This document shows positions 2,616-51,103 of a DNA stretch of 64,000 nt, piece after piece (the first letter of the stretch is position 1; each line of letters opens with the position of its first letter). Source of the stretch: an uncultured archaeon (GTDB lineage: Archaea > Aenigmatarchaeota > Aenigmatarchaeia > QMZP01); NCBI GenBank assembly GCA_964555875.1, contig CAZKUD010000004.1, positions 3,580 through 67,579 on the forward strand, given 5' to 3'. The notes under the pieces were generated by a model. The model did not search any database. It was not told where the DNA came from and worked only from the letters and a program-made list of their open reading frames with translations. Made by a program: the position numbers and the translations under genes.

Positions 2616-2819
2616 TTACTTCTTCTCAGAGAGGGTGTCGACCCTCTGCTCGAGCAGGGCCAGGCTGCCGGAGATGTCCTCCAGCATTATGGCCAACTTG
2701 TCCACCCAGGCGGCCACTATCTTCACGTCAAGGCTGTCCGCCTTGTCGTTTATCTCCTGCCTGAGCGCCCCCAGGTCGCTCTTGAACTCCTCGAATGATG
2801 TTATTGCCATAAGCATCAC
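2616..2819 (-). CDS. Small coiled-coil protein (67 aa), start overlaps trpS stop
   Basis: ORF directly downstream of trpS with a 4-nt overlap. Heptad-like sequence. No family recognised. Confidence 0.4.
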   Translation of the reverse strand: MMLMAITSFEEFKSDLGALRQEINDKADSLDVKIVAAWVDKLAIMLEDISGSLALLEQRVDTLSEKK

Positions 2820-4603
2820 TTGATGAACTTGCCCACCAGCTTCTTGGCCTTCTCCCTCTTCTTCTGGTGCTCTGTAAGGAACCTTGTCAGCAGTTCAGCG
2901 CACTCCTTCTTGCACTCCCCGCAAAGGCGCTTACCTTTCTTGCACTCCTCCCTCACCTTCTGGAGGTGCTTGTCATCCCTTGCCAGGTGGTAGGCGAACA
3001 TGTCGTAGACCGTGCACACGTCAGGGTCTGCGCCCCTCTTCCTCTGCTCGTCAGCGTTGCCCCTCCCGCCCGTGAAGGCGGCTGATAGCTTCTTGGCCGC
3101 CGCCTTCGGGGGGTCGGAAAGGGCTATATGGGAGCCCGGGTCAGAGCTTGCCATCTTGCCTCCCTTGAGGCCTTTCATGAACATGTGGTAAGTGGACGAG
3201 GGCGGGATGAAGCCGAACTCGTCCTTCACCCTGTTGGCTATGTCCCTCGTGAGCCTGAGGTGGGGGTCCTGGTCTATACCCACAGGCACCACCACAGGCG
3301 CCTTCTTCCCTTCGAACTCGGGAAGCATGGGGTGCAGGATGTCAGCCACCTGCGTCATTATGGAGGTTATCTTGCCGGGCGAAAGGTCTCCATATATGGA
3401 CTTCATCTCGTTCATGGTGGGCTTCTTGGACACTATGCCAATCAGCCTGTAGTAGGCGTTCGCCTTCCTGTGGTCGGAGTGCCTGTCGCTCTGGAAGTAG
3501 AAGTCCACGTTCTCCGGCTTCAGGCCGAGGGCTATGTAGTTGAGCAGGTACTCGTTTATCGCGACCTCCTTCAGCTCCTTGAATGTGCATTTCCTCATGT
3601 TATAGGCCTCTATGTCGGCCACGCAGAGGTATACCCTGGCCCCTATGCTCTGGTAATAGACTATCTGGTCAGCCAGCATCTTGTGGCCGAAATGGAACTT
3701 GCCTGAGGGCATCAGGCCCGTCATCATTGACCAGGGCTTGCCTGACTTCACGGCGTCAGCTATGTTCTTGAAGTCCCTGTGCCCGAAAACTATCCCCCTC
3801 TTCATGAGCGGGTGGGGATCAGGCAGCCTGTTAGACATCGGCTTGAACTTGCTTATGCCAAATTCTTCTAACAGCTTGTCGTAGTCCCTTATCTTCTGCT
3901 CCCCCCAGGGGTTTATCCTCTCTGCTGAAACGATGCCTGTCTTGACCTCCTTCCCGAGTATGTGGAGCTCGGTCTCGCCTGGCCTGCCCTTTCCCATGGC
4001 AGCCATCCTGGCGGCGTCCTTCAGGCAGTTCTTTATCCTGGCGTCCTTCACCCCCGGGACGTAGAATGCGAAGTATGCACAGTTCTTCGTCTTCCCTGTT
4101 ACTTTTGTCCTCAGCGACTGGCCCTCAAGGTACGTCCCTATCACGCCGCCTCTGTCTTTCACCACAACATCGCCCTGCTCGAGCGTGACCGTGTCGCCGG
4201 CCATGTTGGTGAACTCGTCCCCCTCCATGGCCTGGTCAACAGTGAGCGCGCCGTCCATCCTGTCGCTGTCCATCACGCCCATCAGCACCAGGTGCTTGAG
4301 CTCTGCCAGCAGCATGGCGTCCACCATCGGGGACAGGGTAGGTATGCCCTTTCCCTTGAGTACGGCCTTCACTCCCTCCAGTATGGGGAAGGGCCTGTCA
4401 TGGCGGCCGAAGAACTTGTCGTAGGCCTTTATGATGTCCACCTTCTCCCAGTTCCTGTACTCCTTCTTGACTATCCTCTCCACAGTGCTCCTCTCGTCCC
4501 TGAGCTCCCTGGACCCTGTGTTGACTGAGCCCTTCACCTCGACCAGGCCCAGACGCATGGTCGGATAGCGCTCCTTTATCCTCTGGGAAAACTGAACTTC
4601 CAT
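2816..4603 (-). CDS. trpS: Tryptophanyl-tRNA synthetase with an N-terminal B3/4-like domain (PheRS-beta editing-domain fold) of about 220 aa
   Basis: Class I HIGH motif GKFHFGHKML. KMSKS variant GGKMASSD typical of archaeal/eukaryotic TrpRS. N-terminal region LSPMVDAMLLAELKHLVLMGVMDSDRMDGALTV...GDEFTNMAGDTVTL resembles B3/4 domain consensus. 595 aa against about 380 aa for plain TrpRS. Confidence 0.8.
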   Translation of the reverse strand: MEVQFSQRIKERYPTMRLGLVEVKGSVNTGSRELRDERSTVERIVKKEYRNWEKVDIIKAYDKFFGRHDRPFPILEGVKAVLKGKGIPTLSPMVDAMLLAELKHLVLMGVMDSDRMDGALTVDQAMEGDEFTNMAGDTVTLEQGDVVVKDRGGVIGTYLEGQSLRTKVTGKTKNCAYFAFYVPGVKDARIKNCLKDAARMAAMGKGRPGETELHILGKEVKTGIVSAERINPWGEQKIRDYDKLLEEFGISKFKPMSNRLPDPHPLMKRGIVFGHRDFKNIADAVKSGKPWSMMTGLMPSGKFHFGHKMLADQIVYYQSIGARVYLCVADIEAYNMRKCTFKELKEVAINEYLLNYIALGLKPENVDFYFQSDRHSDHRKANAYYRLIGIVSKKPTMNEMKSIYGDLSPGKITSIMTQVADILHPMLPEFEGKKAPVVVPVGIDQDPHLRLTRDIANRVKDEFGFIPPSSTYHMFMKGLKGGKMASSDPGSHIALSDPPKAAAKKLSAAFTGGRGNADEQRKRGADPDVCTVYDMFAYHLARDDKHLQKVREECKKGKRLCGECKKECAELLTRFLTEHQKKREKAKKLVGKFIK

Positions 4604-4633: not shown

Positions 4634-5869
4634 TTACTCCAGGGCTTCCAGCGTTTCCTTGACATGGTCCAGGAAGCGCTGCCACCTGGATTTCTTCCTG
4701 TGCCTGACCCTCACCATGACCAGGGCCACCAGTATCGCCACGGACAGGAGGATGACCAGTATCCACCAGATGGGCTTCCTGCGCCTCTTCCAGAAGAGGT
4801 ATGCCAGTATGGCTGCTATGGAGGCCATCACGACCCACCAGTACCAGCATATCCCGAGGAACCTGCCGAAGTCCAAACCCAGGAGCATGCATTCAGGCAC
4901 GCAGTCGTTGTTGAAGCATATGTACCCGGGAGGGCACCCGCAGTCTATCGGGCAGGCCATGCAGCCCTCCCCTATGGTTGCGTCGCATATCTGGTCCCCG
5001 CAGTAGGGGCTCGGCTTCTCCACCACGGGAGGCTTGGCTATGGGCGTGCCCACCGTAAGGAAGAAGCCCGTGAAGCCTGAAGTGGACGAGAGGAAGTAGA
5101 GGAACTCGGAATCATAGCCTTCCATCCAGTACCTGTCATCGCCCTCCTCTATTGGCCCTATGGGAAGCGTGTTCCTCTTGTTCAGGTAGAACCTTATGAC
5201 CTTTATGCTGTCCGGGTCTATGTTGAACTCCTCTATCCAGTCCCTGCCCACCTTCGATATTACGAAGGAGTCCAGCAGGTTGCCCTCGTCCAGGTTCTCT
5301 GTCTGCACCATGAAGCACCTGTATGGGATTTCATAGTCATAGAGCAGCTCCTCCAGGACCTCGCAGCTTATCTGCGTCATGTTGGCCTCCGCTCCTGGGG
5401 AAGGGCTCTTGAACCTGGCGAATATGTGCATGGTGGGGTCACCCTTGGCCTTCAGGGTCTCGTTTATCAGGCCGGGGTAGACGGGCGGCGTTGGCGTTGG
5501 CGTTGGCCCGGAAGGCTCATCAGGCGGCACAGGGCACACGCCGCAATCCGACGGGCAATCGCTGCAGCTCTCGTACCCGGAGTAGCAGTAGCCGTCGCCG
5601 CAATAGCAGTCCGAAGGGCAGTTGGCATTGGTCTCGGAGGGGTAATCGCACACCCCGTTCCCGCAGTTGAGTATGGTGAGCTGAACCGTCCCGGTGGCCA
5701 GGGTGGTCATGGTGTTGGACACGGAAACCACTACCATGAACCAGGTAAGGGACAGCATGAGGGCTGCTATTATCAGGAGTGCGAGAGCCCTGTCAGGAAC
5801 CTGCCTAGCGGGTGATTTCCTGCTTCCTGACGAACTCGTAGAGGTCTTTCGCTTTCTTGTTCTTTTCAA
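4634..5869 (-). CDS. Cys-rich membrane-anchored extracytoplasmic protein. The annotated start overlaps tyrS by 65 nt, so the true start is probably internal.
   Basis: N-terminal TM helix, CPSDC-type repeats (CGNGVCDYP...CPSDCYCGDGYCYSGYESCSDCPSDCGVCP), PTPTPTPP linker, a second Cys cluster, and a C-terminal Trp-rich TM segment. Confidence 0.5.
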   Translation of the reverse strand: MKRTRKRKTSTSSSGSRKSPARQVPDRALALLIIAALMLSLTWFMVVVSVSNTMTTLATGTVQLTILNCGNGVCDYPSETNANCPSDCYCGDGYCYSGYESCSDCPSDCGVCPVPPDEPSGPTPTPTPPVYPGLINETLKAKGDPTMHIFARFKSPSPGAEANMTQISCEVLEELLYDYEIPYRCFMVQTENLDEGNLLDSFVISKVGRDWIEEFNIDPDSIKVIRFYLNKRNTLPIGPIEEGDDRYWMEGYDSEFLYFLSSTSGFTGFFLTVGTPIAKPPVVEKPSPYCGDQICDATIGEGCMACPIDCGCPPGYICFNNDCVPECMLLGLDFGRFLGICWYWWVVMASIAAILAYLFWKRRRKPIWWILVILLSVAILVALVMVRVRHRKKSRWQRFLDHVKETLEALE

Positions 5870-6899
5870 AATGATCCCTCACGGGCTTGACGAGCTTGTC
5901 TATGTGTTCGGCAATGCCCGCCTTGAGGTCTGCAGGATGGAGCTTGCCCTCCCTGAAGGCGGACTCCAGCTCCTGGTATGTCCCGAACGTGAGGGAGCCC
6001 CCGAACTTGGCAGGCCTCTCTATCGTCATGTCCTTGAAGGCCCTGAAGACTATGTGCCTCGCGTAATCCAGCATCGGGTTGTTGTCCGCTTCCTTCGGGG
6101 CGCAGTAGGCAGAGTTTATCTTCTTCCTTATCTGCTCCCCTGTGTCGTGCATGTATATGCACGTGTTGGGCTTGGACTTGCTCATCTTGGAGCTTATCTC
6201 TATGTCCATCTTCCTGTTCTTGTCGAAGCCCTCCCCTTCCCCCTTCAGGCCCCCAAGGCCCATTAGGGTGTGGTGGGATATTATCACGGGCTTCCAGAGG
6301 CCCAGCTTCGGGCCGACCTCCCTTGCCAGCATGTTGACCTTCCTCTGGTCAAGCCCGAGCTGGCATATGTCGGCCTTGAGGTGGAATATGTCGCTGCACT
6401 GCATCATGGGGTAGAAGTACTGGGCGACCTCCTTCATCTCGCCTTCCTTCCTGCCCATTATGGTGAGGCACCTGGTCGCCCTGGCGACAGAGGTTATCTT
6501 GGCTATACGTATCACCCTCTTCCAGTATTCGTCGTCCATCGAGTTGGCTGCCCAGATGAACTCCAGCTTTCCCTTTGCGGGCTCTATCCCCGAGGCCTTC
6601 CAGACCTCCTGGAAATACTCGCCGACCTTCTGTATCTTCTCCAGGTCGCCCCCCATCTTGTTGTTTATCCAGCCGAACCAGTCCGCTATCCAGAGCTTGA
6701 AATGGACGCCTGCCTTCAGCAGGTCCTTTATGTTCAGGGCCCGGTATATGCCGAAGGGAAGGTGGGCGACGCCGGAAGGCTCGAATCCGTCATAGGCCAC
6801 CGGATGGCCCTTGGCCTGGAGCAGCTGCATGAGCTCCTCGTCTGTCACCACTTCCTCGCCGACTCCCTTTATGAGCTTAAAACGCGTCTCAGTGTCCAT
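5805..6899 (-). CDS. tyrS: Tyrosyl-tRNA synthetase (archaeal type)
   Basis: FEPSGVAHL (P-x-G-x-x-HLG) and KMSKS motifs. 364 aa. Confidence 0.9.
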   Translation of the reverse strand: MDTETRFKLIKGVGEEVVTDEELMQLLQAKGHPVAYDGFEPSGVAHLPFGIYRALNIKDLLKAGVHFKLWIADWFGWINNKMGGDLEKIQKVGEYFQEVWKASGIEPAKGKLEFIWAANSMDDEYWKRVIRIAKITSVARATRCLTIMGRKEGEMKEVAQYFYPMMQCSDIFHLKADICQLGLDQRKVNMLAREVGPKLGLWKPVIISHHTLMGLGGLKGEGEGFDKNRKMDIEISSKMSKSKPNTCIYMHDTGEQIRKKINSAYCAPKEADNNPMLDYARHIVFRAFKDMTIERPAKFGGSLTFGTYQELESAFREGKLHPADLKAGIAEHIDKLVKPVRDHFEKNKKAKDLYEFVRKQEITR

Positions 6900-17202: not shown

Positions 17203-18903
17203 CTATTTGTCCCCCTTTCCCTTTTGTATCTTATAGAGGGCCCTTATCCTGTCCAGGCTGTCAGCCTGCTGGGGGCCCTTGTCCTTCCTGAGCCTGACGA
17301 ACCTAGGGAACCTAAGCGCCCAGCCGCTCGAGTAGGTGGGGCTCTTCTGTATCTCCTCGTATGCCACCTCCACCACCACCTTGGGCCTTATGGCGACCTG
17401 GTTTCCCTTCTCGCTCTCTACCAGGGGCTTCAGTATTTCTGTCAGCCGCTTAAGGGTGACCCCCCCTTCTGTCTCCTTCTCCTTGAGGCCTGTCCCCAGC
17501 ATGCCGCACTCCAGGAACTTGCCTGTCCCGGGCTCCCTGCATCCGAGCACGAACGAGCCCAGCCAGCCTGTCCTCTTTCCCGTGCCCCAGGCGGCCCCTA
17601 TAATGACTAGGTCCAGGTTCTCCATGACAGGCTTGACCTTCAGCCAGCCGCCTGCTACCCTCCTTCCAGGGACGTACAAGGCGTCCAGGTTCTTCACTAT
17701 CAGGCCCTCCTGGCCCGAATCCAGGGCCGACTTGTAGAACTTCTCTGCCTTCTCCAGGTCCTTTGTCCTGAGCTGCTTGGCGAACTGGAACCTGCCCTCT
17801 ATCGGCCTGACTATCCTCTTGAGCTCCTCCAGCCTCTTCTCCAGCGGGGCGTCGAACAGGCTCTTGCCCTCCACATAGACCGCATCGAACAGGTTCATCT
17901 GGACAGGTATCTCCTTTGCCGCCTTATCGACCCCGTGCTTCCTCTTTATCCTGGTGGACAGCATCTGGAACGGCATCGGCCTCTTCGTCTTCGGGTCTAT
18001 GGCCAGCAATTCCCCCTCTATTATCGCGTCCTTCGCCCTTATGCCCCTCTTGGCCAGGTCCACCAGGTCAGGGAACGCCTTCGTGACGTTCTCAAGCCTT
18101 CTTGTGAATATGGATATCTTGTCGCCCTTCTTGTGTATCTGGGCCCGCATGCCATCGTATTTGTACTCCATTGCCGCGTGCTCGTAGGCCCCCAGGGCAG
18201 ACTTCAGGTCTGGCGCCTTCTCTGCCAGGAGCACTATTATGGGCCTGCCTATCTCCATCCTGAGCCTCTTCAGTCCTTTCTCCCCCTTCTCCTTGGCTAT
18301 CCTGGCTATCTCGCTGTAGTCAGGGTACAGGTTCCAGCCTGACTCCACTGCCTTCACGTCTATTCCAAAGGCGTCTGATATGGCGTCACGCACTATGCCC
18401 TCTGCCACGCCTATCCTGAGTTCCTCCAGGACTGTCCTTACTATGTACCTGGCCTCCTTCGGGCCTGCGTGCGCAAGCAGCTCCACGATGAGGTTCATCT
18501 TCCTGTCCTGGCTGCCTGACTCTGCCTGCCTGGCTATGGCCTGCAGGTTCTTGAACACGAAATCGACAGTGAGCTCCTTCTTCATGAGGGTCCTCTGCCT
18601 CTTCTTGCCCTTCAGCCATTCGGCTGTCTTTCCCAGGTCGCCCATCTCATTGAACTTCCTGGCGACATCAGAAGGCTTCATGCCTATCGATTTCGATATC
18701 GCCCTTATCATGAGCTGGTTGGCCACCCCCATCTTGTCGTCTGACCAGTTAGGGAAGGGCCTTCCCATGACGAGCAGCACCAGTTGCGGCAGCTGGCCTG
18801 TAGGGGCTGATTTCAGGAGCTTGGATATGATGTCCCTCTTGGCCAGCTTGGCGCTGGTCTTCTCCAGCTCCTCATAGATGTCGGCCAGCCTTGAATACAG
18901 CAT
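17203..18903 (-). CDS. lig: ATP-dependent DNA ligase
   Basis: Adenylation motif KYDGMRAQIH (KxDG), OB-fold region. 566 aa. Confidence 0.9.
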   Translation of the reverse strand: MLYSRLADIYEELEKTSAKLAKRDIISKLLKSAPTGQLPQLVLLVMGRPFPNWSDDKMGVANQLMIRAISKSIGMKPSDVARKFNEMGDLGKTAEWLKGKKRQRTLMKKELTVDFVFKNLQAIARQAESGSQDRKMNLIVELLAHAGPKEARYIVRTVLEELRIGVAEGIVRDAISDAFGIDVKAVESGWNLYPDYSEIARIAKEKGEKGLKRLRMEIGRPIIVLLAEKAPDLKSALGAYEHAAMEYKYDGMRAQIHKKGDKISIFTRRLENVTKAFPDLVDLAKRGIRAKDAIIEGELLAIDPKTKRPMPFQMLSTRIKRKHGVDKAAKEIPVQMNLFDAVYVEGKSLFDAPLEKRLEELKRIVRPIEGRFQFAKQLRTKDLEKAEKFYKSALDSGQEGLIVKNLDALYVPGRRVAGGWLKVKPVMENLDLVIIGAAWGTGKRTGWLGSFVLGCREPGTGKFLECGMLGTGLKEKETEGGVTLKRLTEILKPLVESEKGNQVAIRPKVVVEVAYEEIQKSPTYSSGWALRFPRFVRLRKDKGPQQADSLDRIRALYKIQKGKGDK

Positions 18904-19071
18904 ATTATTATATTGTGGGGCCCGGCTATAACAGCTTTTACGGCCTGGCTATCTGGTCAGCCCCTTTAGAAGCATTTAAAACTACCGCATAGTAACAAAA
19001 GCTTTATAAAGCTTTCGGCCAAATAATGAAGTATAATTTACCACTGAGGGGCGATAAGCATTTATACCCCA

Positions 19072-19893
19072 TTGGTAAATAATAATGGAAAGTGTGATAA
19101 TATGGTAGCAACAACTCACGTGCTGGACACGCTGAAAAGCATTGGTCTGAACCTCTATGAGAGGAAGATATTCGTAGCCCTGCTCGCAAAAGGCGTAGCA
19201 ACAGCAGCTGAGGTTTCAGAGATTGCGACCGTCCCCAGGTCAAGGAGCTATGACGTCCTGCAGTCGCTTGCTGAGAAAGGCTTCGTGCTGGTGCAGCCTT
19301 CAAAGCCAATAAAGTATGTGGCCCTGGCGCCCAAGGATGCGCTGGAGAGGACCAAGCAGATTCTCAGGAAGAATTATGACGAGGCAAAGGAGAGGATAGA
19401 AGGCCTTTCCAACTCGCCCATCCTGGGCGAACTCGAGGCCATACACAAGAAGGGCCTCAACATGGTGTCCCCGAACGAGATGACAGGCACCCTGAAGGGG
19501 AGGCACATAATCAACAGGCAGCTCAAGTCCATATTCAAGGAGGCCAGGGACAGCATAAGCATCTGCACCACAGGGACGGGCCTTAACGACCTTTATTCTA
19601 ACCATTTCAGGGTTCTCAAGAAGATATCCAAGAGCGGCGTGAAGCTGAAGATAGCGGCCCCGCTTTCCGACAACGGGGCAGTGAAGGCCTTCAGGGAGAT
19701 AGCCGACATAAAGAACCTGAAGAGGAACGCTGGCAGGTTCTGCGTCATAGACCGGAACCATGTGCTGGTCGCCCTGACCGACGACTCAAAGGTCCACGAC
19801 ACACAGGATGTCGCCTTCTGGGCGAACTCAGAGCACGCTGCCGGTGACCTCATGTCACCCTACTTCGACTTCCTCTGGAAGGGAGCCAAGTAA
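19072..19893 (+). CDS. TrmB-family transcriptional regulator
   Basis: N-terminal wHTH LGLNLYERKIFVALLAKGVATAAEVSEIATVPRSRSYDVLQSLAEKGFV plus C-terminal effector domain. Confidence 0.75.
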   Translation: MVNNNGKCDNMVATTHVLDTLKSIGLNLYERKIFVALLAKGVATAAEVSEIATVPRSRSYDVLQSLAEKGFVLVQPSKPIKYVALAPKDALERTKQILRKNYDEAKERIEGLSNSPILGELEAIHKKGLNMVSPNEMTGTLKGRHIINRQLKSIFKEARDSISICTTGTGLNDLYSNHFRVLKKISKSGVKLKIAAPLSDNGAVKAFREIADIKNLKRNAGRFCVIDRNHVLVALTDDSKVHDTQDVAFWANSEHAAGDLMSPYFDFLWKGAK

Positions 19894-19932
19894 TTATAAC
19901 CTGATTCTTACAATAGCTTATTGGTGTTAGGC

Positions 19933-20544
19933 ATGCGTCTCATCATAGTAAGGCACGGCCAGACCGAATACAACGTCAAGAATATCGTACAGGGCCAGTC
20001 CGGCAACCCCCTGGACGAGACCGGCAGGGAGCAGGCCAGGAAGGCTGGGGAGCGGCTATCGGCAGAGAAGATAGACGTCGCCTACTCCAGCGACCTGAAC
20101 AGGGCCAGGATGACCTGCGAGGCCATAATGAAGCACCACCCGGGCATCCCTGTGCACTATGTGAAGGAGCTGAGGGAGATGGACATGGGCACGTTCGTGG
20201 ACGGACCCAAGGAGGCCTACAATCAGCACAAGAGGAAGTCAGGCCTCAGCAAGCTCGAATACAGGCCCCCGGGAGGAGAGAGCCACCGTGACATGAGGGA
20301 GCGTGTGATACCCTTCCTGGAAGGCATAAAGGAGGGGCACAGGGGCCAGACGGTCCTGATAGTGACCCATGGGGGAATCAAGCGCATACTGATGGGGGAG
20401 CTGATGGGCAAGACCGTGGAGGAATATTTCAAAGAGAAGTGGGGCAACACGTCTGTCAGCATAGTCAATGTCACAGGGAAGGGCCATGAGGTGATGGTCT
20501 ACAACTGCACCAAGCACCTGTCAGAGAAGCCGGGGCAGATGTGA
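19933..20544 (+). CDS. Histidine phosphatase family protein (phosphoglycerate mutase-like). The ORF track starts at TTG 19921.
   Basis: RHGQTEYN catalytic motif, second His in THGG. Confidence 0.8.
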   Translation: MRLIIVRHGQTEYNVKNIVQGQSGNPLDETGREQARKAGERLSAEKIDVAYSSDLNRARMTCEAIMKHHPGIPVHYVKELREMDMGTFVDGPKEAYNQHKRKSGLSKLEYRPPGGESHRDMRERVIPFLEGIKEGHRGQTVLIVTHGGIKRILMGELMGKTVEEYFKEKWGNTSVSIVNVTGKGHEVMVYNCTKHLSEKPGQM

Positions 20545-21423
20545 TCAGTACATGAAGCGGAATCCGGATTTCTCGAGTTCCGCGAACTCCTTCCACTTGC
20601 CGTCTATCTGTTCTTGCATCTTCTTGAGTGTGGCTTCGTTCACGTGCTTGAACCTGCCCTGTAGCCTGAGGTAGCTTTCTACCGGCTTCCTGGGCTCCGC
20701 CCTCTTGGTTATCCTGAACTTGCCGTCCTCTATCTCATAGAGGGCCCACATGCCTGTCTCGACGGCCAGCTTGCCGACGTCCACTGTCTTCTCTGTCCCG
20801 AACTTCCAGCCCGTCGGGCAGGGGCAGTGTATGTGCAGGAACGAGGGCTGCTTATCAAAGGCCTTCCTGACCTTGGCCATCAGGTCAGAGGGGTAGGCTA
20901 TCGAAGCTGAAGCGGCATAAGGTATCCTGTGGGCGGCCACTATCTCCAGGAGCTGCTTCTTGTACTGCTCCTTTCCCACCGTGGTCTTTCCCGGAGGGCT
21001 CGTGGTGGTCCAGGCCCCATACGGGGTCGCGCCTGACCTCTGGACGCCCGTGTTGGCATAGCATTCGTTGTCGACGCAGACCTGGGTGACCTTGTGGCCC
21101 CTCTCGAGCATGCCTGACAATGCCTGCAGGCCTATGTCGAACGTCCCTCCGTCGCCCGCTATCGCCAGGACCTTCCAGTCCTTGCCCATCTTCTTTATGG
21201 CTGCCTCTATCCCGCTGGCCACTGCCGAAACGCACTCGAATGCCGTGTGTATCCAGGGCACCTTCCAGGCCGTAAGGGGATAGACTGAAGTCGTGACCTC
21301 CAGGCAGGAGGTGGCTGTGGTCACTATCACCTTCTCAGGCGCCGCCCTGCCTATCAGGTTCATAGCGATGCCTATGCCGCATCCTGCGCACAGGGAGTGC
21401 CCGGACTCGATGAGCTGTGCCAT
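20545..21423 (-). CDS. porB: 2-oxoacid:ferredoxin oxidoreductase beta subunit (PorB/KorB-like, TPP-binding), apparently solitary
   Basis: N-terminal CAGCG, TPP motif GDGG, CPxP cluster. No alpha/gamma/delta genes in the window. Confidence 0.8.
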   Translation of the reverse strand: MAQLIESGHSLCAGCGIGIAMNLIGRAAPEKVIVTTATSCLEVTTSVYPLTAWKVPWIHTAFECVSAVASGIEAAIKKMGKDWKVLAIAGDGGTFDIGLQALSGMLERGHKVTQVCVDNECYANTGVQRSGATPYGAWTTTSPPGKTTVGKEQYKKQLLEIVAAHRIPYAASASIAYPSDLMAKVRKAFDKQPSFLHIHCPCPTGWKFGTEKTVDVGKLAVETGMWALYEIEDGKFRITKRAEPRKPVESYLRLQGRFKHVNEATLKKMQEQIDGKWKEFAELEKSGFRFMY

Positions 21424-21528
21424 AACCCTATTTACCGGCCTCCTTTTATAAGCTTATTTCAGGGGGCTCTGGCTATTGCCGAGCCTGACGGCTGGGGAGT
21501 GAAAAATAAGAACTAGTTTCTTTGGTAC

Positions 21529-21573
21529 AGTAGCTTTCTTGCAGAAGCGGCAGCTCTCGTAAAGAAAGCTACT
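21529..21573 (-). ncRNA. Conserved 3'-end hairpin element, copy A (12-bp stem, 21-nt loop GCAGAAGCGGCAGCTCTCGTA on + strand)
   Basis: Perfect inverted repeat AGTAGCTTTCTT/AAGAAAGCTACT. Abuts the stop codon of the 21573..21821(-) gene. Loop shares AGAAGCG-NN-AGCTCT with copies B and C while the stems differ (compensatory). A T-tract follows on the minus strand. Confidence 0.45.
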
Positions 21574-21821
21574 CACTTCTTCTTCTCTTTCTTGAGCTCC
21601 TTCTGGGCCCTGAGCTCGTCCATCTCGAGCCAGACAACGAACAGGCCGACGATTATCAGGAAGATGGGTATGACGCCGGTGAGAACCACTATGAAGTTCT
21701 TCAGCCAGTCGATGCCGAAGGTGCCCAGCACTCCCATGATTGGGATGACCGAATCAACGAAGAGCCCCAAGCCGATTATTATCAGTATGAGCCCGATTAT
21801 TATCTTCAGCGCTGGATGCAT
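21573..21821 (-). CDS. Small membrane protein with Lys-rich C-terminus (82 aa)
   Basis: Two or three predicted TM helices. Confidence 0.5.
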   Translation of the reverse strand: MHPALKIIIGLILIIIGLGLFVDSVIPIMGVLGTFGIDWLKNFIVVLTGVIPIFLIIVGLFVVWLEMDELRAQKELKKEKKK

Positions 21822-21929
21822 TTTACCCTCCTATCTATAAACTCTTCTTGGTGATTGTATTTAAAAGTTTTCTGGCTTAAAACACTTATTTAAGCAGGAT
21901 TCACAATAATTAGCTATTGGGTGAGGCGC

Positions 21930-22499
21930 ATGGTATACAAGCATATGGCAAGGCTCTGGAAGAGGCCAAAGGAAAGCGTTCCCCAGACCTGGAAGCAGAG
22001 GCTGATAGACTGGAGGAAGGAAGGCACGGTCACAAGGATAGAGAGGCCCACCAGGATAGACAGGGCCAGGAGGCTCGGCTACAAGGCAAAGCAGGGCTTC
22101 GTGATGGTAAGGGTGAAGATGCCCAAGGGGCTCAGGAAGAGGCCCAAGCCTTCCGGCGGCAGGAGGCCCAAGAGGGCAGGAAGGTACTTTTCCCTCGGGA
22201 AGTCCAAGAGATGGACGGCAGAGGAGAAGGCAGCCAGGAAGTTCGCCAACCTGGAGGTGCTCAATTCCTATTACGTCGGTGAGGACGGGTCCCAGCAGTG
22301 GTACGAGGTCATAATGGTCGACCCGAAGAACCCCTCTATAATAAAGGACAAGGACATAAGCTGGATAAGCGAGCACAGGGGCCGGGCATCAAGGGGCCTG
22401 ACCTCGGCAGGCAAGAAGGGAAGGGGACTGACGAAGAAGGGCATCGGAGCAGAGAAGGTCAGGCCTTCCCTGAAGGCGAAGAAGGGAAGGGGCAAGTGA
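21930..22499 (+). CDS. rpl15e: 50S ribosomal protein L15e
   Basis: WKRPKE...[21 protein letters not shown]...[13 protein letters not shown] signature. The ORF track begins at an upstream GTG. Confidence 0.9.
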
Positions 22500-22566
22500 G
22501 CGAAAGCAATCAGAGGGTAACGCCCCGGCTCTCAGCTTTATAAATGTGTTGCAACTAATTATATTC

Positions 22567-23097
22567 ATGGTGTTTGAAACCATTATCCAGAACATGCAGA
22601 CAATGGGCTTTTTCCAGTATCTGTTCCCATTCCTGCTTGCGCTGGCGATACTTTACGGCGTCATGACTGTCGCCCTGAAGGACAAGATGCCGAAGAACGC
22701 GATTGCTCTGATATCGCTGATACTCTCGTTCTTCGTGATGCTGTTCGTCAGCTCAAACCCTGGAATAGTAACATTCCTGATGAACATCTCTGGCTACTGG
22801 CTGGTGATAGGATCCGGAATACTGTTCCTTCTGGTTCTGCTGGGAATGTTCGGAATTAAAGCAGAGAAACTGATGGAAGGGGACTGGAGCAAGTGGATCC
22901 TGATACTTGTCATCGTTGCGATCGCGCTGGTGATCTTCTTCGGTGCAGGCGGGGAGGCCCTAGTCGGAGTGCCCTCAGGAGTATTCAGTTCTGAGCTGTG
23001 GACGATAGTGTTCTTTATCGTCATACTGGCTCTCGTGATGTTCGTGATGGGCAAAGAAGGCGGCTCTGGCGGAGGCGAGAAGCCGAAGCCAGCCTAA
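22567..23097 (+). CDS. Polytopic membrane protein, hypothetical (ORF track starts at GTG 22546; the ATG at 22567 sits about 27 nt after the TATA box at 22537, suggesting a leaderless mRNA)
   Basis: Five or six hydrophobic helices, Gly/Ser-rich C-terminus. Confidence 0.55.
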   Translation: MVFETIIQNMQTMGFFQYLFPFLLALAILYGVMTVALKDKMPKNAIALISLILSFFVMLFVSSNPGIVTFLMNISGYWLVIGSGILFLLVLLGMFGIKAEKLMEGDWSKWILILVIVAIALVIFFGAGGEALVGVPSGVFSSELWTIVFFIVILALVMFVMGKEGGSGGGEKPKPA

Positions 23098-23103
23098 AGC
23101 CGG

Positions 23104-23125
23104 TTTTTGCTTTTTCTTTTGTTTT
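23104..23125 (+). terminator. Oligo-T archaeal terminator (TTTTTGCTTTTTCTTTTGTTTTC)
   Basis: T-tracts immediately after the 22567..23097 stop. Confidence 0.45.
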
Positions 23126-23170
23126 CACCCTTTAGCCTCACGGCTGTCCAGGGAATCTTCCAGAAAGGGA

Positions 23171-24040
23171 TCAGGCCTGCTTCTCTTTCATCGTCTTGAT
23201 GGTCTCTGACAGGGACCTGAGGGACTGCATCATGGGGGTGAGGCTGTCCTTTATGGCGCGCTCCATCGCCTCTGTCCTCTCGCTGAGCTCCCCTATCGAT
23301 GACTTGTAGGATTCCATGCCGGCCTTTATCTCCTCTACGCCTGCCGAGCCTCCGCCCCTGCCTGCGCCTGGCTCCATGCCGGCCATCCTGGAGCTTATGG
23401 AATCGACCCTCTTTGACAGCTCAGCCAGCTGGGCCTCTATCGTCCTTATCCTTTCTTCCACTATGCTCTCCGCTATCTCTTCCATCTCTCCCCTTCCCAC
23501 ATGGCTCGCCTTCCTTCCGGGGGGAGGGGGCAGCGGCTCCATCTCCTCATCAAAGTCCTCGTCCTCTGGCGGCAGGGCGGAAGGCCTTCTGCCGGCAGGG
23601 GCCGGCGGCTGGGGCGCGCCTTCAGGCGGCCTCCATCCCCTCGAGGGGGGCTCCGGCTCTTCCCCCAAGACATCATCTCCCTCAGGAGGCGCGAACCTTC
23701 CCGGAGGGAACTCTGCCATCTCGAGCGAGCCCGGCCCAGGTGGCGGCTCCATCTCCTGCCCGGCCGGGGGCCTGGGCGCAGGCGCCCTTGGCGCCGGCTC
23801 CCTCTGGGGCTGCCTGGCGGGCGCTATGTCCGGGACTGCAGGGGTTCCTGTGACCGATTCCTTAAGCACGCCCTTCATGGCCTGGTCGACATCCTTCGGG
23901 CCGTAACCCTCTGCCCTGAGCGACCTCAGTATCTCGACCTCTGAAAGGCCCTGGGCAGAAAGCTCCCTAACCCTGTCCCCTGCTCCCGGCCTGCCTGGCG
24001 TGGACTTGGGCTTTTTCTTAAAAAGTGACAGACTTACCAT
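23171..24040 (-). CDS. Pro-rich low-complexity protein with C-terminal coiled coil
   Basis: PxxP-rich middle, heptad-rich C-terminus. Confidence 0.45.
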   Translation of the reverse strand: MVSLSLFKKKPKSTPGRPGAGDRVRELSAQGLSEVEILRSLRAEGYGPKDVDQAMKGVLKESVTGTPAVPDIAPARQPQREPAPRAPAPRPPAGQEMEPPPGPGSLEMAEFPPGRFAPPEGDDVLGEEPEPPSRGWRPPEGAPQPPAPAGRRPSALPPEDEDFDEEMEPLPPPPGRKASHVGRGEMEEIAESIVEERIRTIEAQLAELSKRVDSISSRMAGMEPGAGRGGGSAGVEEIKAGMESYKSSIGELSERTEAMERAIKDSLTPMMQSLRSLSETIKTMKEKQA

Positions 24041-32922: not shown

Positions 32923-35067
32923 GTGGTTGGGATAGCCGGTAAGTTTTACATCACGACAGCCATTGACTACGTCAATGCGAAGCCGCACCTTGGGCATGCG
33001 TACGAGAAGCTGGCAGCTGACACGATAGCCAGGTGGCACAGGCTTAAGGGGGAGGACGTGCTCTTCCTGACAGGGACAGACGAGAACGCCCAGAAGAACG
33101 TGCAGGCTGCAGAGAAGGCAGGCAAGCCTGTCAAGGAGTTCATAGACGATGTCGTGAAGAACTTCCTGAACCTGTGCAGGGTGTACAACATCTCATATGA
33201 CGATTTCATCAGGACCACAGAGGACAGGCACCACCAGGTGACCAGGTCCCTCTTCCAGAAGATGCACGACAGCGGGGACATCTACAGGGGGCATTATGAG
33301 GGCATATACTGCTACGGCTGCGAGGCCTTCTACCTGGAGAAGGACCTGAAGGGCGGATGCTGCCCTGTGCATAAGACCAAGCCTGTGGTCATAAAGGAGG
33401 AGGCGTACTTCTTCAAGCTGAGCAAGTACGAGAAGAGGCTGCTGGACTTCTACAGGAAGCTGCCTGACAACGTGCTTCCGAAGAGCAGGAAGAACGAGAT
33501 GCTGAACAGGATAGGAGAGGGCCTGAGGGACCTCTGCGTGAGCAGGCAGAAGGTGGAATGGGGGGTGAAGGTGCCTTTCGATGAGAACCACAGGGTGTAC
33601 GTCTGGTTCGATGCCCTCATCAACTACATATCAGCACTGGGGTGGCCTAAAGGGGAGAGGTTCAGGAAGTACTGGCCGGCTGACATACACATGATAGGCA
33701 CCGATATCAACTGGTTCCATTCCGTCATATGGCCCGCCATGCTGATGTCGGCGGGGATAGAGCCCCCTAAAACAGTGTTCGTGCACGGCATGATTACGTC
33801 AGAAGGCGAGAAGCTAAGCAAGACCAGGGGCATAATAGTGGACCCATTCGACCTGGTCGAAAGGTATGGGCTGGACCAGGTGCGTTACTTCCTCCTAAGG
33901 GCAGGCCCGTTCGGCGAGGAGATAGACTACACTGAAGAGGCGATAGTGGGCAGGATAAACGGCGAGCTTGTGGCCGACTTGGGCAACCTACTGAACAGGG
34001 CCGTGACACTGGCAGAGAAATACAAGGGAGAGATAAAGGGCAAGCCTGAGCTGGACAGCGGCCTGGGACTTGAGAAGCTCTCCCTCCACATGGACAGGCT
34101 CGAGCTGCACCATGCGCTGGAGGAGCTCTGGAGGTACATGGGCATCTGCAACAAGTACATCAACGACAGGGAGCCCTGGAAGCTGGAAGGGGATGAGCTC
34201 TCGAACGTGCTCTACAACCTGCTCGAGGCCCTGAGATGCATAGCGATTCTCATAACCCCCTTCATGCCAGGGACAGCCGGGAAGATGAACGAACAGCTTG
34301 GGGTGAAGCCGGGCAAGCTGGCTGACTGCAAGTTTGGGCCCTGGGAGGGCAGTGTCAGGAAGGGCGGGCACCTGTTCGAGAAGGTCGAGTTCAAGAAGAA
34401 GGAAGGGAAGGCGAAGGAGATATCGGTCAACGTCACCCCTGAGGCCCAGAAGCTCGGGATAAAGGTCAGGGCAGCCGTAATAACGGGCGTGAAGGTGAAG
34501 AGGAAGCAGTCAAGCCTGGAGAAGCTCAAGAAGGACGAGGTGGGGCTGACAGACCTGGACGCCATAGGGAAATCCAAGGAGATCGAGGGCTACAGGCTGC
34601 TTTACGAGAAGGTCGGGGCCAAGGTGGAGAATCCGGTTGCCCACCTTGCCGGCATAGTCAAGAAGGCAGGCAAGCTGCCCACCATCAACACTGTGGTCGA
34701 TTCCTATAATATAGTGGCCCTCAGGAAGCGCCTGTCAGTGGGTGCCCATGACCTGGACAGGATACAGGGCAACGTCAATTTCAAGATAACCGACGGCAAG
34801 GAGTCCTGGACTCCCCTGGGGGAGGACAGGCCAAAGGCTGTCCCGGAAGGCGAGTATGCCTGCGTGGACCAGGCCAAGGTGCTGTGCAGGATGGACATCA
34901 AGCAGGGAGACCAGACCAAGATAACCGACAGGACGAAGAACATATTTGTCTATGTCCAGGGCAACCCCAACACGCCTGACGACTATCTCAAGCAGGCCCT
35001 GGAGGAGATAATAACCAACATCACCCGGTTCTGCGGCGGGAAGGCCGTGATTTCTGAGCCTATATAA
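32923..35067 (+). CDS. metG: Methionyl-tRNA synthetase with a C-terminal B3/4-like domain
   Basis: HIGH (KPHLGHAYE) and KMSKS (KLSKTRG) motifs, MetRS zinc knuckle CYGCEAF...CCPVH. C-terminal 200 aa (INTVVDSYNIVALRKRLSVGAHDLDRIQGNVNF...) resembles the PheT B3/4 domain rather than the usual EMAP-like tRNA-binding domain. Confidence 0.85.
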   Translation: MVGIAGKFYITTAIDYVNAKPHLGHAYEKLAADTIARWHRLKGEDVLFLTGTDENAQKNVQAAEKAGKPVKEFIDDVVKNFLNLCRVYNISYDDFIRTTEDRHHQVTRSLFQKMHDSGDIYRGHYEGIYCYGCEAFYLEKDLKGGCCPVHKTKPVVIKEEAYFFKLSKYEKRLLDFYRKLPDNVLPKSRKNEMLNRIGEGLRDLCVSRQKVEWGVKVPFDENHRVYVWFDALINYISALGWPKGERFRKYWPADIHMIGTDINWFHSVIWPAMLMSAGIEPPKTVFVHGMITSEGEKLSKTRGIIVDPFDLVERYGLDQVRYFLLRAGPFGEEIDYTEEAIVGRINGELVADLGNLLNRAVTLAEKYKGEIKGKPELDSGLGLEKLSLHMDRLELHHALEELWRYMGICNKYINDREPWKLEGDELSNVLYNLLEALRCIAILITPFMPGTAGKMNEQLGVKPGKLADCKFGPWEGSVRKGGHLFEKVEFKKKEGKAKEISVNVTPEAQKLGIKVRAAVITGVKVKRKQSSLEKLKKDEVGLTDLDAIGKSKEIEGYRLLYEKVGAKVENPVAHLAGIVKKAGKLPTINTVVDSYNIVALRKRLSVGAHDLDRIQGNVNFKITDGKESWTPLGEDRPKAVPEGEYACVDQAKVLCRMDIKQGDQTKITDRTKNIFVYVQGNPNTPDDYLKQALEEIITNITRFCGGKAVISEPI

Positions 35068-35080
35068 GTATTTTGGTGAT

Positions 35081-35229
35081 TCAGTATATATTGTGTAGAA
35101 TATAGATTGGGAATACTATTTTGTAGGACACATACACTTATATAGGCGCTCAGACTAATTACATATTGCGCTTGTCATACTATATATTGTGTGCCAGACA
35201 CGAGAAATACACAATTTCCTTGTATTTCC
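35081..35229 (+). promoter_or_regulatory. nrdD upstream control region: two NrdR-box-like palindromes (TCAGTATATATTGTGT 35081-35096; ATACTATATATTGTGT 35177-35192; centres 96 bp apart) plus inverted repeat GAAATACAC-N9-GTGTATTTC-like at 35203-35229
   Basis: Match to the bacterial NrdR-box consensus acaCwAtATaTwGtgt (15/16 and 13/16). AT-rich 200-bp leader. SD GGGAGGGAG 7 nt before the ATG. Confidence 0.4.
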
Positions 35230-35269
35230 GTGTTACTGGCCAGTGACAAAGGCATGGGAGGGAGATGAT

Positions 35270-49126: not shown

Positions 49127-49270
49127 AACTATCTATAACCGTAACCTTTTTAAACCCTTATTTTATCTATTGGTATTGAACCGCATATAAATGCGATAAA
49201 ACACTGGTCATAATTGGCTCTTTCTCAGAACAGAGTTAACAATGATGAACAGAAAAAAGGAAGTGATAAA

Positions 49271-51103
49271 ATGAACGAAAAAACAAAAAGCGCTAGCAAT
49301 AAGTCTAGCAGAAAGAAGGTCGTCCCGGACACGAGCGTGCTCATCCTGGGGACGATATCGGGCCGGATAAAATCCGGCAAGCTGAAGGGCGCAAGGATCC
49401 TCATTCCCAAGGCAGCCATAGACGAGCTGCAGGCCCAGGCAAGCAGGGGTCACGAGACCGGCTTCAAGGGGCTTGAGGAAGTCAAGGCCATAAGGGCGCT
49501 GGGAAAACAGAAGGGCATAGAAGTGGAATTCCCGGGCACGCGGCCGACCCTAGAGGAGATACACCTGGCCAAGAAGGGCAGGATAGACGCCCTGATAAGG
49601 GACGTTGCCGCCAAGAGCGGCGGGAAGCTGCTTACTGCCGATTATGTTCAGGCCCTTGTGGCCGAGGCAGAGGACGTTGCAGTGGAATACGTCCCACAGC
49701 CCGTCAAGAAGAAGGTCAGCATAGAGTCCTTCTTCAGGGAGGGGATGCAGTCCCTCCATATGAAGGTGGGGGTGCCTCCCATGGCCAAGATAGGCAGGCC
49801 TGGCGAGGTGAAGCTCGTGCAGCTCAAGAAGCAGAAGGTGGACGAGGACGGGCTGAAGGCAATGATAGACGAGATAGTCTACCAGGCCAAGAAGAAGGAC
49901 GATTCCTTCATAGAGATAGGGAGGAACGGAGCCACTGTCGTGCAGATGGGGGAGTACAGGATATCCATAACCAGGCCCCCTTTCTCTGACGCCATGGAGC
50001 TGACAGCTGTCAGGCCCATAGCCAAGGTGAAGCTGGACGACTACCAGCTGCATGAGGAGCTGAAGGAAAGGTTCGCCAAGAAGTCCCAAGGTGTCCTGAT
50101 AACAGGACCGCCTGGGGAGGGCAAGACGAGCTTCGCCTCGGCCCTGGCCAAGTTCCTGAGCAGCCAGGACAAGGTTGTCAAGACATTCGAGCAGCCCAGG
50201 GACCTGCAGGTAGGCCCTGAGGTCACCCAGTACGGCCCCCTGGAGGGGGACTGGGTCAAGTCAGCGGAGATTCTCCTGCTGGTGAGGCCCGACTACACCA
50301 TATTCGACGAGATCAGGAAGACATCCGACTTCAGGATATTCGGTGACATGAGGCTGGCTGGTGTCGGCATGATTGGGGTGGTGCACGCCACGTCCCCCGT
50401 GAGCGCAATACAGCGTTTCATAGGGCGCGTTGAGCTGGGCATGATACCCAACATAATAGACACCGTCATCTTCGTGGAGGCAGGCAGGGTCTCCAAGGTG
50501 TACGAGATGGTGCTGAGCGTGAAGGTGCCTTCAGGCATGACCGAGGCCGACCTGGCCAGGCCTGTGGTGGAGGTGAAGGACTTCGCCACCAAGAAAGCGG
50601 AGTATGAGATATACACGTTCGGGAACGAGAACGTCATCATACCTGTCAAGGAGGGCGCCAAGGGCTCGCCTGTCAATGAGCTCGCCAAGCAGAGGGTAGA
50701 GCAGGAGCTCAGGAGGTACGACCCCTCTGTGGAGGTGGAGGTCGTCGGCGCCAACAAGGTGGTGGCCCGGGTCCGCAATGAGTCCATGGCCCGGCTCATA
50801 GGAAGGAAGGGCGAGAACATAAGCTCCCTGGAGAAGAGGCTGGGCATCTCAATTGATGTCCAGCCCAGGGAAGCCACAATGAAGCAGGGACTGAAATGGA
50901 GGCACCAGGAATCCGGCGCCTTCGTGAACATCCTTGTGGACCCTGAGCTCACAGGAGAGCAGGTGGACGTCTACAGGGCTGACGAGTACATATTCTCCCC
51001 CTACGTGGGGAAGGGCGGGGCGATAAAGGTCAAGAAGCGCTCCCCGCTCGGCAGCAAGATAATGGGAGCGATATACTCCCGAAGACTGAGAGTGATGGCA
51101 TAA
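49271..51103 (+). CDS. PIN-domain / PilT-PhoH-like ATPase / C-terminal KH domain protein (COG1855-like)
   Basis: PIN-like N-terminus, Walker A GPPGEGKTS, KH-like RLIGRKGENISSLEKRLGISIDV. The ORF track starts at 49214; the ATG at 49271 has an SD-like AGGAAGTGA. Confidence 0.75.
   Translation: MNEKTKSASNKSSRKKVVPDTSVLILGTISGRIKSGKLKGARILIPKAAIDELQAQASRGHETGFKGLEEVKAIRALGKQKGIEVEFPGTRPTLEEIHLAKKGRIDALIRDVAAKSGGKLLTADYVQALVAEAEDVAVEYVPQPVKKKVSIESFFREGMQSLHMKVGVPPMAKIGRPGEVKLVQLKKQKVDEDGLKAMIDEIVYQAKKKDDSFIEIGRNGATVVQMGEYRISITRPPFSDAMELTAVRPIAKVKLDDYQLHEELKERFAKKSQGVLITGPPGEGKTSFASALAKFLSSQDKVVKTFEQPRDLQVGPEVTQYGPLEGDWVKSAEILLLVRPDYTIFDEIRKTSDFRIFGDMRLAGVGMIGVVHATSPVSAIQRFIGRVELGMIPNIIDTVIFVEAGRVSKVYEMVLSVKVPSGMTEADLARPVVEVKDFATKKAEYEIYTFGNENVIIPVKEGAKGSPVNELAKQRVEQELRRYDPSVEVEVVGANKVVARVRNESMARLIGRKGENISSLEKRLGISIDVQPREATMKQGLKWRHQESGAFVNILVDPELTGEQVDVYRADEYIFSPYVGKGGAIKVKKRSPLGSKIMGAIYSRRLRVMA

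Follow-up and report, generated by a model that had tools for sequence, protein, structure and literature searches.

Tryptophanyl-tRNA synthetase (TrpRS) is regarded as faithful without editing, and editing by class I aminoacyl-tRNA synthetases is otherwise carried out by the CP1 domain. The B3/B4 fold belongs to the class II enzyme phenylalanyl-tRNA synthetase (PheRS), whose beta subunit uses it to hydrolyse Tyr- and m-Tyr-tRNAPhe. A free-standing B3/B4 protein, CtdA, is a canavanyl-tRNAArg deacylase with structures in the PDB (9f7e, 9mkl) (PMC10018355, PMC12268091, PMC12449066); these papers do not mention synthetase fusions, and they call the specificity of a second clade, CtdA-2, undetermined. 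In bacteria of the candidate phyla radiation (CPR), the B2 domain of PheRS-beta was found fused to tyrosyl-tRNA synthetase (TyrRS), with the synthetase body swapped and the module kept (Mukai et al. 2017, PMC5370408). In the shared-domain table of AARS Online, the only entries for TrpRS are the WY anticodon-binding domain and WHEP, and B3/B4 is assigned neither to TrpRS nor to methionyl-tRNA synthetase (MetRS); the passages of a 2020 review in which TrpRS is named do not mention TrpRS editing, and full-text literature searches found no description of a B3/4-TrpRS architecture. Such an architecture is encoded at 2816..4603 (minus strand) in a 64,000-nucleotide stretch of DNA from an uncultured archaeon of the Aenigmatarchaeota (contig CAZKUD010000004.1, positions 3,580 to 67,579; henceforth the window). 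We describe here this 595-amino-acid TrpRS with an N-terminal CtdA-like B3/B4 module, and the recurrence of such modules on TrpRSs of other types.

The gene is a single open reading frame (ORF) with an ATG start, without interruption and without a stop codon or alternative start at the junction of its two parts. The N-terminal sequence MEV/IxFSQRIKER is common to the relatives and backs the choice of the start codon. When the protein was scanned against Pfam, only two domains were detected: B3_4 (PF03483; residues 82-184, 42.1 bits, E 9.1e-11, with a gathering cut-off of 29.3 bits) and tRNA-synt_1b (residues 288-576, E 7.6e-41). The archaeal TrpRS equivalog of NCBIfam, NF008925, matched residues 229-594 over profile positions 1-361 of 365 with 493.6 bits (cut-off 451 bits), and a motif scan located the HIGH signature as HFGH (residues 304-307; 3683..3694, minus strand) and the KMSKS signature as KMASS (residues 483-487; 3143..3157, minus strand). 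Because the profile is covered and both signatures are present, the TrpRS is complete and the first ~228 residues are additional. Residues 229-595 with the stop codon (2816..3919, minus strand) form a bona fide and, to judge from these matches, catalytically intact archaeal TrpRS, which is ~60% identical to the unfused TrpRSs (364-376 aa) of other Aenigmatarchaeota. The sequence-only reading of this DNA had recognized a 595-aa TrpRS carrying an N-terminal editing-fold module of ~220 aa; the peptides that it quoted are present at residues 90-122 and 128-141. The PF03483 match and a fold match of probability 1.0 (see below) agree with that description, and a known TrpRS-specific extension of unrelated fold, such as WHEP, was considered and rejected.

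With the module alone as query, a word-indexed homologue search returned just two relatives, and an exhaustive profile search was needed, which gave 1001 matches at E <=1e-3 among 1.84 billion representatives. Nearly all of the best 150 of these matches are single-domain proteins of 205-235 aa, aligned from about residue 1 to about residue 205. A profile built from 80 of the stand-alone proteins found CtdA as the top entry of the PDB (9f7e, E 2.6e-10; also 9mkl), with the bacterial PheRS-beta B3/B4 ranking after it. Residues 1-228 were modelled with AlphaFold2 (AF2) at a mean predicted local distance difference test score (pLDDT) of 91.5 and a predicted template modelling score (pTM) of 0.88, with the domain ending at about residue 217; the module accordingly comprises residues 1-217 (3953..4603, minus strand). 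In a Foldseek comparison of the model with the PDB, the CtdA structures 9mkl and 9f7e came first, over their full length (template modelling score (TM) 0.75, E ~1e-13, 228 columns), and more than 30 PheRS-beta chains matched at a TM of ~0.6; the probability was 1.0 for both CtdA and PheRS-beta B3/B4, and there was a weak match to the C-terminal domain of TilS. The model contains a three-helix insert (H32-48, H56-66 and H73-82), and these helices at residues 32-82 correspond to the helical insert specific to CtdA (PMC12449066). The bacterial PheRS-beta profile pheT_bact (TIGR00472) reached 13.7 bits on the window protein against a cut-off of 402.65. The sequence-only reading had called the module PheRS-type. 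Because it matches stand-alone proteins of ~220 aa from end to end, carries the CtdA-type insert and fits the CtdA fold better than that of PheRS-beta (TM 0.75 vs ~0.6), this assignment had to be given up: the module is best described, from sequence and model, as a complete, apparently once free-standing CtdA-like B3/B4 protein that became fused to the TrpRS N-terminus, and not as a PheRS-beta fragment.

The full-length protein was also modelled with high mean confidence (pLDDT 93.2) and with a pTM of only 0.70. The linker between the two parts (residues 218-228; 3920..3952, minus strand) was recognized from low pLDDT and the drop in pTM: it is disordered, pLDDT falls below 50 at residues 219-230, and no secondary structure is predicted over residues ~216-240 in either model. 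We read the modelled module and TrpRS as two rigid bodies that would be joined by a flexible tether of ~12-20 residues. How the two parts pack against each other was not predicted with confidence in the full-length model, and we therefore propose no docking geometry.

Exactly the same 595-aa protein was found on four contigs from four public sources (NCBI, JGI, Logan and ENA). An orthologue of 86% identity in a metagenome-assembled genome of Candidatus Aenigmatarchaeota (L002) has the same unbroken frame, and so do relatives of 51-54% and lower identity. In comparison with the L002 orthologue, the ratio of nonsynonymous to synonymous substitution rates (dN/dS) was 0.132 in the module and 0.107 in the TrpRS body, with 0.184 in the linker; purifying selection thus constrains the module almost as strongly as the synthetase itself. 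It could be argued that an error of sequencing or assembly, or else a recent frameshift, has joined trpS to a neighbouring stand-alone B3/4 gene, since separate genes of this kind do lie side by side in another locus (L091, see below). We give this explanation practically no credence: the identical protein on four contigs and the unbroken frame in L002 rule out an artefact of assembly or frameshift, and the unbroken ORFs of relatives at 85%, 51-54% and lower identity, together with a linker dN/dS of 0.18 and the clean junction, effectively refute it.

Among 80 genome-representative archaeal TrpRS loci the module was present only in L002, and no separate B3/4 gene was found near trpS in any of them (flanks up to 6 kb). 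A full-length search recovered eight cluster representatives, the window protein included, with PF03483 and PF00579 on a TrpRS of the window type. Those of the eight that carry a source name all come from Aenigmatarchaeota and are annotated simply as 'tryptophan--tRNA ligase'. B3/4-TrpRS proteins were found on two further backbones, an archaeal TrpRS of the NF008927 type (P0022 and P0002) and a bacterial-type TrpRS (P0062; TIGR00233/NF009207), so that the fused module occurs in three TrpRS subfamilies (NF008925, NF008927 and the bacterial TIGR00233/NF009207). Among the best 150 of the 1001 module matches only three proteins are longer than 300 aa (567-588 aa), and all three are TrpRS fusions. 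In BLAST comparisons the module of P0062 was 44% identical to the stand-alone protein P0085 and 32% to the window module, and that of P0022 was 35% identical to P0023 and 27% to the window module. Because each fused module has its nearest relatives outside its own group among stand-alone proteins, these comparisons argue for at least three independent B3/4-TrpRS fusions, on the basis of nearest neighbours in BLAST rather than of a full phylogeny. If fusion partners were drawn by chance from ~20 synthetase families, the probability that a second and a third fusion would match the first would be about 0.0025 or less. Recruitment to TrpRS is thus not only lineage-specific, as the sequence-only reading had proposed: the module recurs on other archaeal and on bacterial TrpRS backbones.

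Two pairs of loci illustrate how the module behaves in evolution. In the window, the B3/4-TrpRS gene is preceded by an archaeal TyrRS gene (364 aa, without an appended domain; 5805..6899, minus strand; NF006330, 360.8 bits) and by a gene for a Cys-rich protein of 411 aa (4634..5869, minus strand) with repeats of a CGDxxCD-like motif and predicted transmembrane segments, for which no significant Pfam match was found. The same order, TyrRS, Cys-rich membrane protein and B3/4-TrpRS, is seen in L001, which encodes P0002. TyrRS is 71%, the membrane protein at the corresponding position 34% and the module 60% identical between the two loci, whereas the TrpRS bodies share only 31% identity; the TrpRS body of L001 is instead 59% identical to that of P0022. 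For L001 1730..2872 against window 2816..4603, these values indicate an exchange of the TrpRS body in situ, with retention of the fused module. L001 consists of one metagenomic contig of 2.9 kb and could be a chimera, but an in-frame join exactly at the linker is unlikely. In L082, too, the fused TrpRS gene has a TyrRS gene upstream.

The other pair is bacterial. The gene for the fused protein P0062 (L084 to L086) lies in an apparent operon behind genes for a distant tryptophan-2,3-dioxygenase (TDO)-like protein and an XRE regulator. The orthologous operon of L091 consists of the TDO-like gene, the XRE gene, a stand-alone B3/4 gene (P0085) and, after a gap of 51 nucleotides, a separate trpS (TIGR00233, 284.8 bits vs a cut-off of 176.75). 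Identities between L084 and L091 are 55% (TDO-like), 46% (XRE), 61% (TrpRS) and 41% (module of P0062 vs P0085). By gene order and these identities, the two loci form a textbook split/fused orthologous operon pair. The bacterial operon spans 1..4466 in L084 (also in L085 and L086) and 300..4727 in L091, with a GC content of ~40-41% and a TDO-like protein of 424-427 aa. In the vicinity of the L091 operon there are also genes for an aromatic-type pyridoxal phosphate (PLP) decarboxylase and CHAT/SIR2/nSTAND defence-like genes.

The residues lining the presumed active site were compared with those of the two characterized families. Alignment to the Salmonella/E. coli PheRS-beta (E. coli beta numbering) places L98, G109 and Q162 of the module at the positions of N254, H265 and G318, which together with E334 we take, partly after PMC12268091, to be the editing-site residues; the insertion that contains E334 is missing. 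The PheT editing-site residues, to which the sequence-only reading had drawn attention, are thus not conserved. The sole conserved equivalents are D112 and D150, for D268 and D306 respectively. For CtdA, the residues relevant to catalysis or specificity were taken from PMC12268091 and PMC12449066 and mapped with a HMMER alignment to the Pseudomonas canavaninivorans protein: Y104 corresponds to M97, N105 to L98, G116 to G109, E118 to M111, C166 to G156, Q173 to Q162, I189 to F178 and E191 to F180. Thus, of the pocket and catalysis set (Y104, N105, G116, E118, C166, Q173 and E191) only the equivalents of G116 and Q173 are kept, and the aspartates D102 and D160 are conserved as D95 and D150. According to these mappings the active-site constellations of both CtdA-1 and PheRS are missing in the module.

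The 137 closest stand-alone proteins have a signature of their own: [M/L]97, [F/L]98, E101 (129/137), [H/Q]111 (125/137), D112, D150 and G161 (129 each), P162 and [Y/F/W]180. The signature of this TrpRS-type subfamily can be written as [ML][FL]xxE...[HQ]D...D...GP. The window module retains the near-invariant subfamily positions V94, E101, L107, D112, D150, G161, T166 and T172, and has Met at position 111. A pocket with hydrophobic and aromatic walls (M97, L98, M111, F178 and F180) and a carboxylate (E101), as deduced from the alignments, would suit an indole-like or other aromatic side chain.

The same genome encodes a MetRS with a B3/4 domain, as the sequence-only reading had stated. This protein of 714 aa (32923..35067, plus strand) matched Pfam tRNA-synt_1g with 349.8 bits and B3_4 with 69.9 bits (residues 573-703). 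Its CtdA-like module is C-terminal (residues 510-708; 34450..35046, plus strand) and scored 99.3 bits against the stand-alone-family profile (positions 13-215). A tRNA_bind domain of the Trbp111/EMAP type is common at the C-terminus of MetRS; none was detected in this protein by the Pfam scan. The same MetRS architecture occurs in a second Aenigmatarchaeota genome (L090, 4895..7016), where it is called as two overlapping ORFs, which could be due to a frameshift or to a real split. The MetRS module is 24% identical to the TrpRS module (E 9e-10) and belongs to a MetRS-type subfamily that takes in stand-alone DPANN proteins of 46-48% identity. The signature of this subfamily, D-Y-N..G.HD..D..C..KQ..Y.Q, is conserved or nearly so in 17 members, and its pocket has Y, N, G, C and Q where CtdA has them, and His in place of E118. 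To judge from their differing pocket signatures, the TrpRS and MetRS modules represent two different subfamilies. Of the suggestion that this domain was recruited to several class I synthetases, it therefore holds that both TrpRS and MetRS carry such a module, and it does not hold that a single domain was recruited twice. One stand-alone DPANN member of the MetRS type (P0165; L089, 1571..3008) is encoded with the gene for the RNase P subunit Rpr2 on one side and a DTW-domain gene on the other. Since proteins with a DTW domain are enzymes of the tRNA-modification type, this neighbourhood is tRNA-related.

Several relatives of the TrpRS-type module are found next to genes of tryptophan metabolism. 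The gene for the stand-alone B3/4 protein P0012 lies 36 nucleotides downstream of bona fide trpB-trpA on the same strand (L092, 3746..6408; L093, 3989..6693). The gene of the fused P0022 (L083, 6..3993, GC 35%) stands beside trpA and genes for a YggS-like PLP protein (Ala_racemase_N) and an Asp/Glu racemase, a context that is possibly a hint at D-amino acids or merely a setting of Trp biosynthesis. As pointers to a substrate, the TDO-like and racemase neighbours are weak hints only.

Taking these observations together, our favoured reading, whose likelihood we put a little short of even, is that the module acts on charged tRNATrp at its CCA end and hydrolyses a near-cognate product. It would do so at the 3' CCA-aminoacyl end during or just after charging, the pocket that lies between its B3 and B4 halves would take up the aminoacyl moiety, and hydrolysis would amount to post-transfer proofreading, either in cis or across the TrpRS dimer. 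Catalysis might be substrate-assisted, as proposed for PheRS editing, and candidate substrates would be Trp analogues or oxidation products (kynurenine, hydroxy-Trp), D-Trp, or Tyr/Phe; we infer tRNATrp as target, hydrolysis and the substrate class from the comparisons above. The reading is supported by the fact that the homologous families, CtdA and PheRS-beta, are aminoacyl-tRNA deacylases, and a flexible tether is what one would expect of a mobile domain that captures the CCA end. Also counted in its favour are the purifying selection on the module, its recurrence on three TrpRS subfamilies, the split/fused operon pair, its retention in the L001 swap, the neighbouring tryptophan genes and the subfamily positions that the window module retains. 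A broader proposal, which we put forward tentatively and consider possible rather than probable, is that certain CtdA-like B3/B4 branches are dedicated X-tRNATrp deacylases (X being a Trp analogue or oxidation product, D-Trp or another aromatic amino acid), working in cis when fused to TrpRS in Aenigmatarchaeota, other archaea and some bacteria, and in trans when encoded beside trpS or trpBA. If this were true, TrpRS, a textbook 'non-editing' enzyme, would be the first class I enzyme with a class II (PheRS-type) editing fold, and the MetRS fusion of the same genome would be the second such case.

A number of observations weigh against editing by this module. We know of no need for TrpRS editing, and the AARS Online shared-domain table gives TrpRS no editing domain. 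In the pocket, the PheRS editing residues are gone (L98, G109 and Q162 stand for N254, H265 and G318, and the module lacks the four-residue insertion in which E334 sits), and Y104, N105, E118 and E191, all relevant to catalysis in CtdA (PMC12268091), are M97, L98, M111 and F180 here. The only characterized precedent of a TrpRS with an editing fold, that of Plasmodium, was concluded to serve tRNA binding and not editing (PMC3680381). Furthermore, although D112, D150, G161 and T172 are invariant in the fused Aenigmatarchaeota clade, the pocket positions of this clade drift more than those of the stand-alone proteins. Positions 109-111 are GVM or GIM in the window protein and P0002, TAH in relatives of 81-85% identity and D-V/I-K in the group of 51-54% identity; position 111 is therefore M, H or K, compared with H/Q in 125 of the 137 stand-alone proteins. 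E101 is replaced by Q or S in three of nine fused-clade sequences, all three belonging to the four members of the 51-54% group (Q in P0003 and P0191, S in P0193; P0192 keeps E). Finally, in P0194 (549 aa, on an ENA contig of 4381 bp) a low-complexity Lys/Ala-rich tail stands instead of the N-terminal (B3) half of the module, and just the C-terminal half and a longer linker are left before the TrpRS. As far as the alignments tell, variation of this kind is compatible with changed specificity, and also with loss of catalysis while RNA binding is kept.

The link to tryptophan also has its limits. In 80 metagenomic loci (L095 to L174, 38 of them at least 4 kb long) of a stand-alone sub-clade defined by the patterns [LI]VEAMF[MI]A and LLTAGHD, trpS, trpA, trpB or a TDO-like gene was found in none of the flanks, which also counts against the favoured reading. 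The recurrent neighbours were an ABC exporter (9 loci), a MOSC-domain gene directly downstream (7) and an AraC regulator (4); neighbours of this kind suggest that the VEAMFMAE/LLTAGHD sub-clade serves in detoxification. The notion that the whole subfamily is dedicated to Trp was rejected on these grounds, and since the 80 loci lack Trp genes, the tryptophan association is branch-specific and not family-wide. The gene contexts of P0005, P0009, P0165 and P0172 were uninformative. Overall, the B3/4 family seems to consist of proteins that share a deacylase fold and whose partners have diversified.

The strongest competitor of proofreading, which we nevertheless consider rather unlikely, is that the module is a non-catalytic tRNA-binding appendage that orients or captures the acceptor end of tRNATrp and so raises affinity or efficiency in the reduced translation system of DPANN archaea. 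The AlaX-like domain of Plasmodium TrpRS is a precedent for such a handle (PMC3680381, PMC3240968), and the exchange of catalysis-relevant CtdA and PheRS residues for hydrophobic ones, the drift of the pocket in the fused clade, and the replacement of half the module in P0194 by a Lys-rich tail, a typical non-specific RNA-binding element, all fit it. So does the C-terminal position of the MetRS module in a protein in which no Trbp111/EMAP-type tRNA_bind domain was detected, whereas purifying selection, recurrence and the flexible tether are equally well explained by binding and by hydrolysis. A generic binder would, however, be expected on many synthetases, yet each subfamily pairs with one synthetase only, and all three long proteins among the best 150 of the 1001 matches are TrpRS fusions. 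It is also not obvious why a mere handle would keep the subfamily pocket residues E101, D112, D150 and G161 in the window protein, or why the variable pocket triplet would be conserved within each subgroup (GVM/GIM or TAH; D-V/I-K). The CtdA-like Y, N, H, C and Q of the MetRS type, kept or nearly so in 17 members, point to a pocket that would be active in at least that paralogue.

If the module is an active deacylase, its substrate need not be a product of TrpRS. It is improbable, but conceivable, that a trans-acting detoxifier was fused to the synthetase merely for co-expression or stoichiometry in a small genome: CtdA, the one characterized free-standing member, is a trans-acting enzyme directed at a non-cognate amino acid (PMC10018355, PMC12449066), the window module hangs on a long, flexible tether, and the other sub-clade, which shows no link to tryptophan, has neighbours of a detoxification-like kind (ABC exporter, MOSC, AraC). 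Such a bystander would hardly have been joined repeatedly with TrpRS and no other partner, by independent fusions as well as by operon adjacency, nor retained when the TrpRS body was replaced, and the further associations with trpBA and a tryptophan-dioxygenase-like gene would be left unexplained. Still less likely, in our view, is a module without any action on tRNA, which would sense free Trp or a Trp metabolite and so modulate TrpRS, or would serve as a protein-interaction domain that docks TrpRS to another factor. The hydrophobic pocket with its conserved carboxylate would suit a ligand sensor, as would the relatives that adjoin trpA, trpBA, a TDO-like gene or the aromatic-type decarboxylase of L091; but the characterized members of the fold that we are aware of, PheRS B3/B4, CtdA and the TilS C-terminal domain, act on tRNA, and a regulatory precedent was not found.

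Apart from these genes, several other features of the window were recorded. The gene at 44213..46927 (plus strand) encodes the large subunit of a ribonucleotide reductase, into which an intein carrying a LAGLIDADG homing-endonuclease domain is inserted, and that at 35189..37525 (plus strand) an anaerobic ribonucleotide reductase NrdD with an N-terminal NrdR-type zinc ribbon and an ATP-cone. A giant ORF of 3260 aa (54184..63966, minus strand) with NosD/right-handed beta-helix and Big_13 Ig-like regions is probably a surface protein, and a protein of 629 aa (49214..51103, plus strand) combines a PIN domain, a T2SSE-like ATPase and a KH domain. In the region ~18000..24000, the cumulative GC skew has its minimum near 18-20 kb, where the coding strand of most genes changes from minus to plus.

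Among free-standing B3/B4 proteins only CtdA-1 has a known substrate. The repeated capture of B3/4 modules by TrpRS, the retention of the module in the swap and the module on MetRS are therefore a 'Rosetta-stone' lead to the function of such proteins, and they make post-transfer proofreading on tRNATrp and tRNAMet a testable question. Should the module do no more than bind tRNA, archaea and Plasmodium would have converged in turning editing folds into tRNA handles.

Of the known systems, CtdA is the best structural and PDB sequence-profile match: it has a similar size (~220-230 aa) and the same B3/B4 fold with the helical insert. It differs in being free-standing, whereas the window module is fused to a synthetase; identity is only 18-20%, Y104, N105, E118, C166 and E191 are replaced, and the module belongs to a distinct subfamily. 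The published CtdA-2 clade is said to keep N105, a residue that is retained in the MetRS-type subfamily and missing in the TrpRS-type subfamily. The occurrence of COG3382 under the ykkC (guanidine) riboswitch (PMC3766115) was set aside, as it concerns the CtdA-1/canavanine branch and not the TrpRS-type branch. With PheRS-beta B3/B4 the module shares PF03483, the fold, the equivalents of D268 and D306, and location in cis on a synthetase. In contrast to it, the module lacks the PheRS-specific helices and the B1/B2/B5-B8 domains, matches with a TM of ~0.6 and does not conserve the editing residues; its host is of class I and not of class II, and it is terminal on a flexible linker, whereas the PheRS domain is embedded.

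In architecture, the closest analogue is the cytosolic TrpRS of Plasmodium falciparum, in which an editing-fold homologue of a free-standing trans-editing factor is likewise attached N-terminally via a linker (PMC3680381, PMC3240968). There, the fold is that of AlaX and not B3/B4, the enzyme is eukaryotic and confined to alveolates, and tRNA binding, not editing, was the conclusion for its domain (PMC3680381). The B2-TyrRS of CPR bacteria also carries a PheRS-beta-related module at the N-terminus of a class Ic synthetase in ultrasmall prokaryotes, and its body was replaced between near-syntenic contigs with the module kept, as in L001 and the window; B2, however, is an OB-fold RNA-binding domain and not a B3/B4 deacylase fold, and the host is TyrRS. 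By its architecture B3/4-TrpRS, whose sequences are public and annotated simply as TrpRS, joins the synthetases to which a relative of a trans-editing factor is attached.

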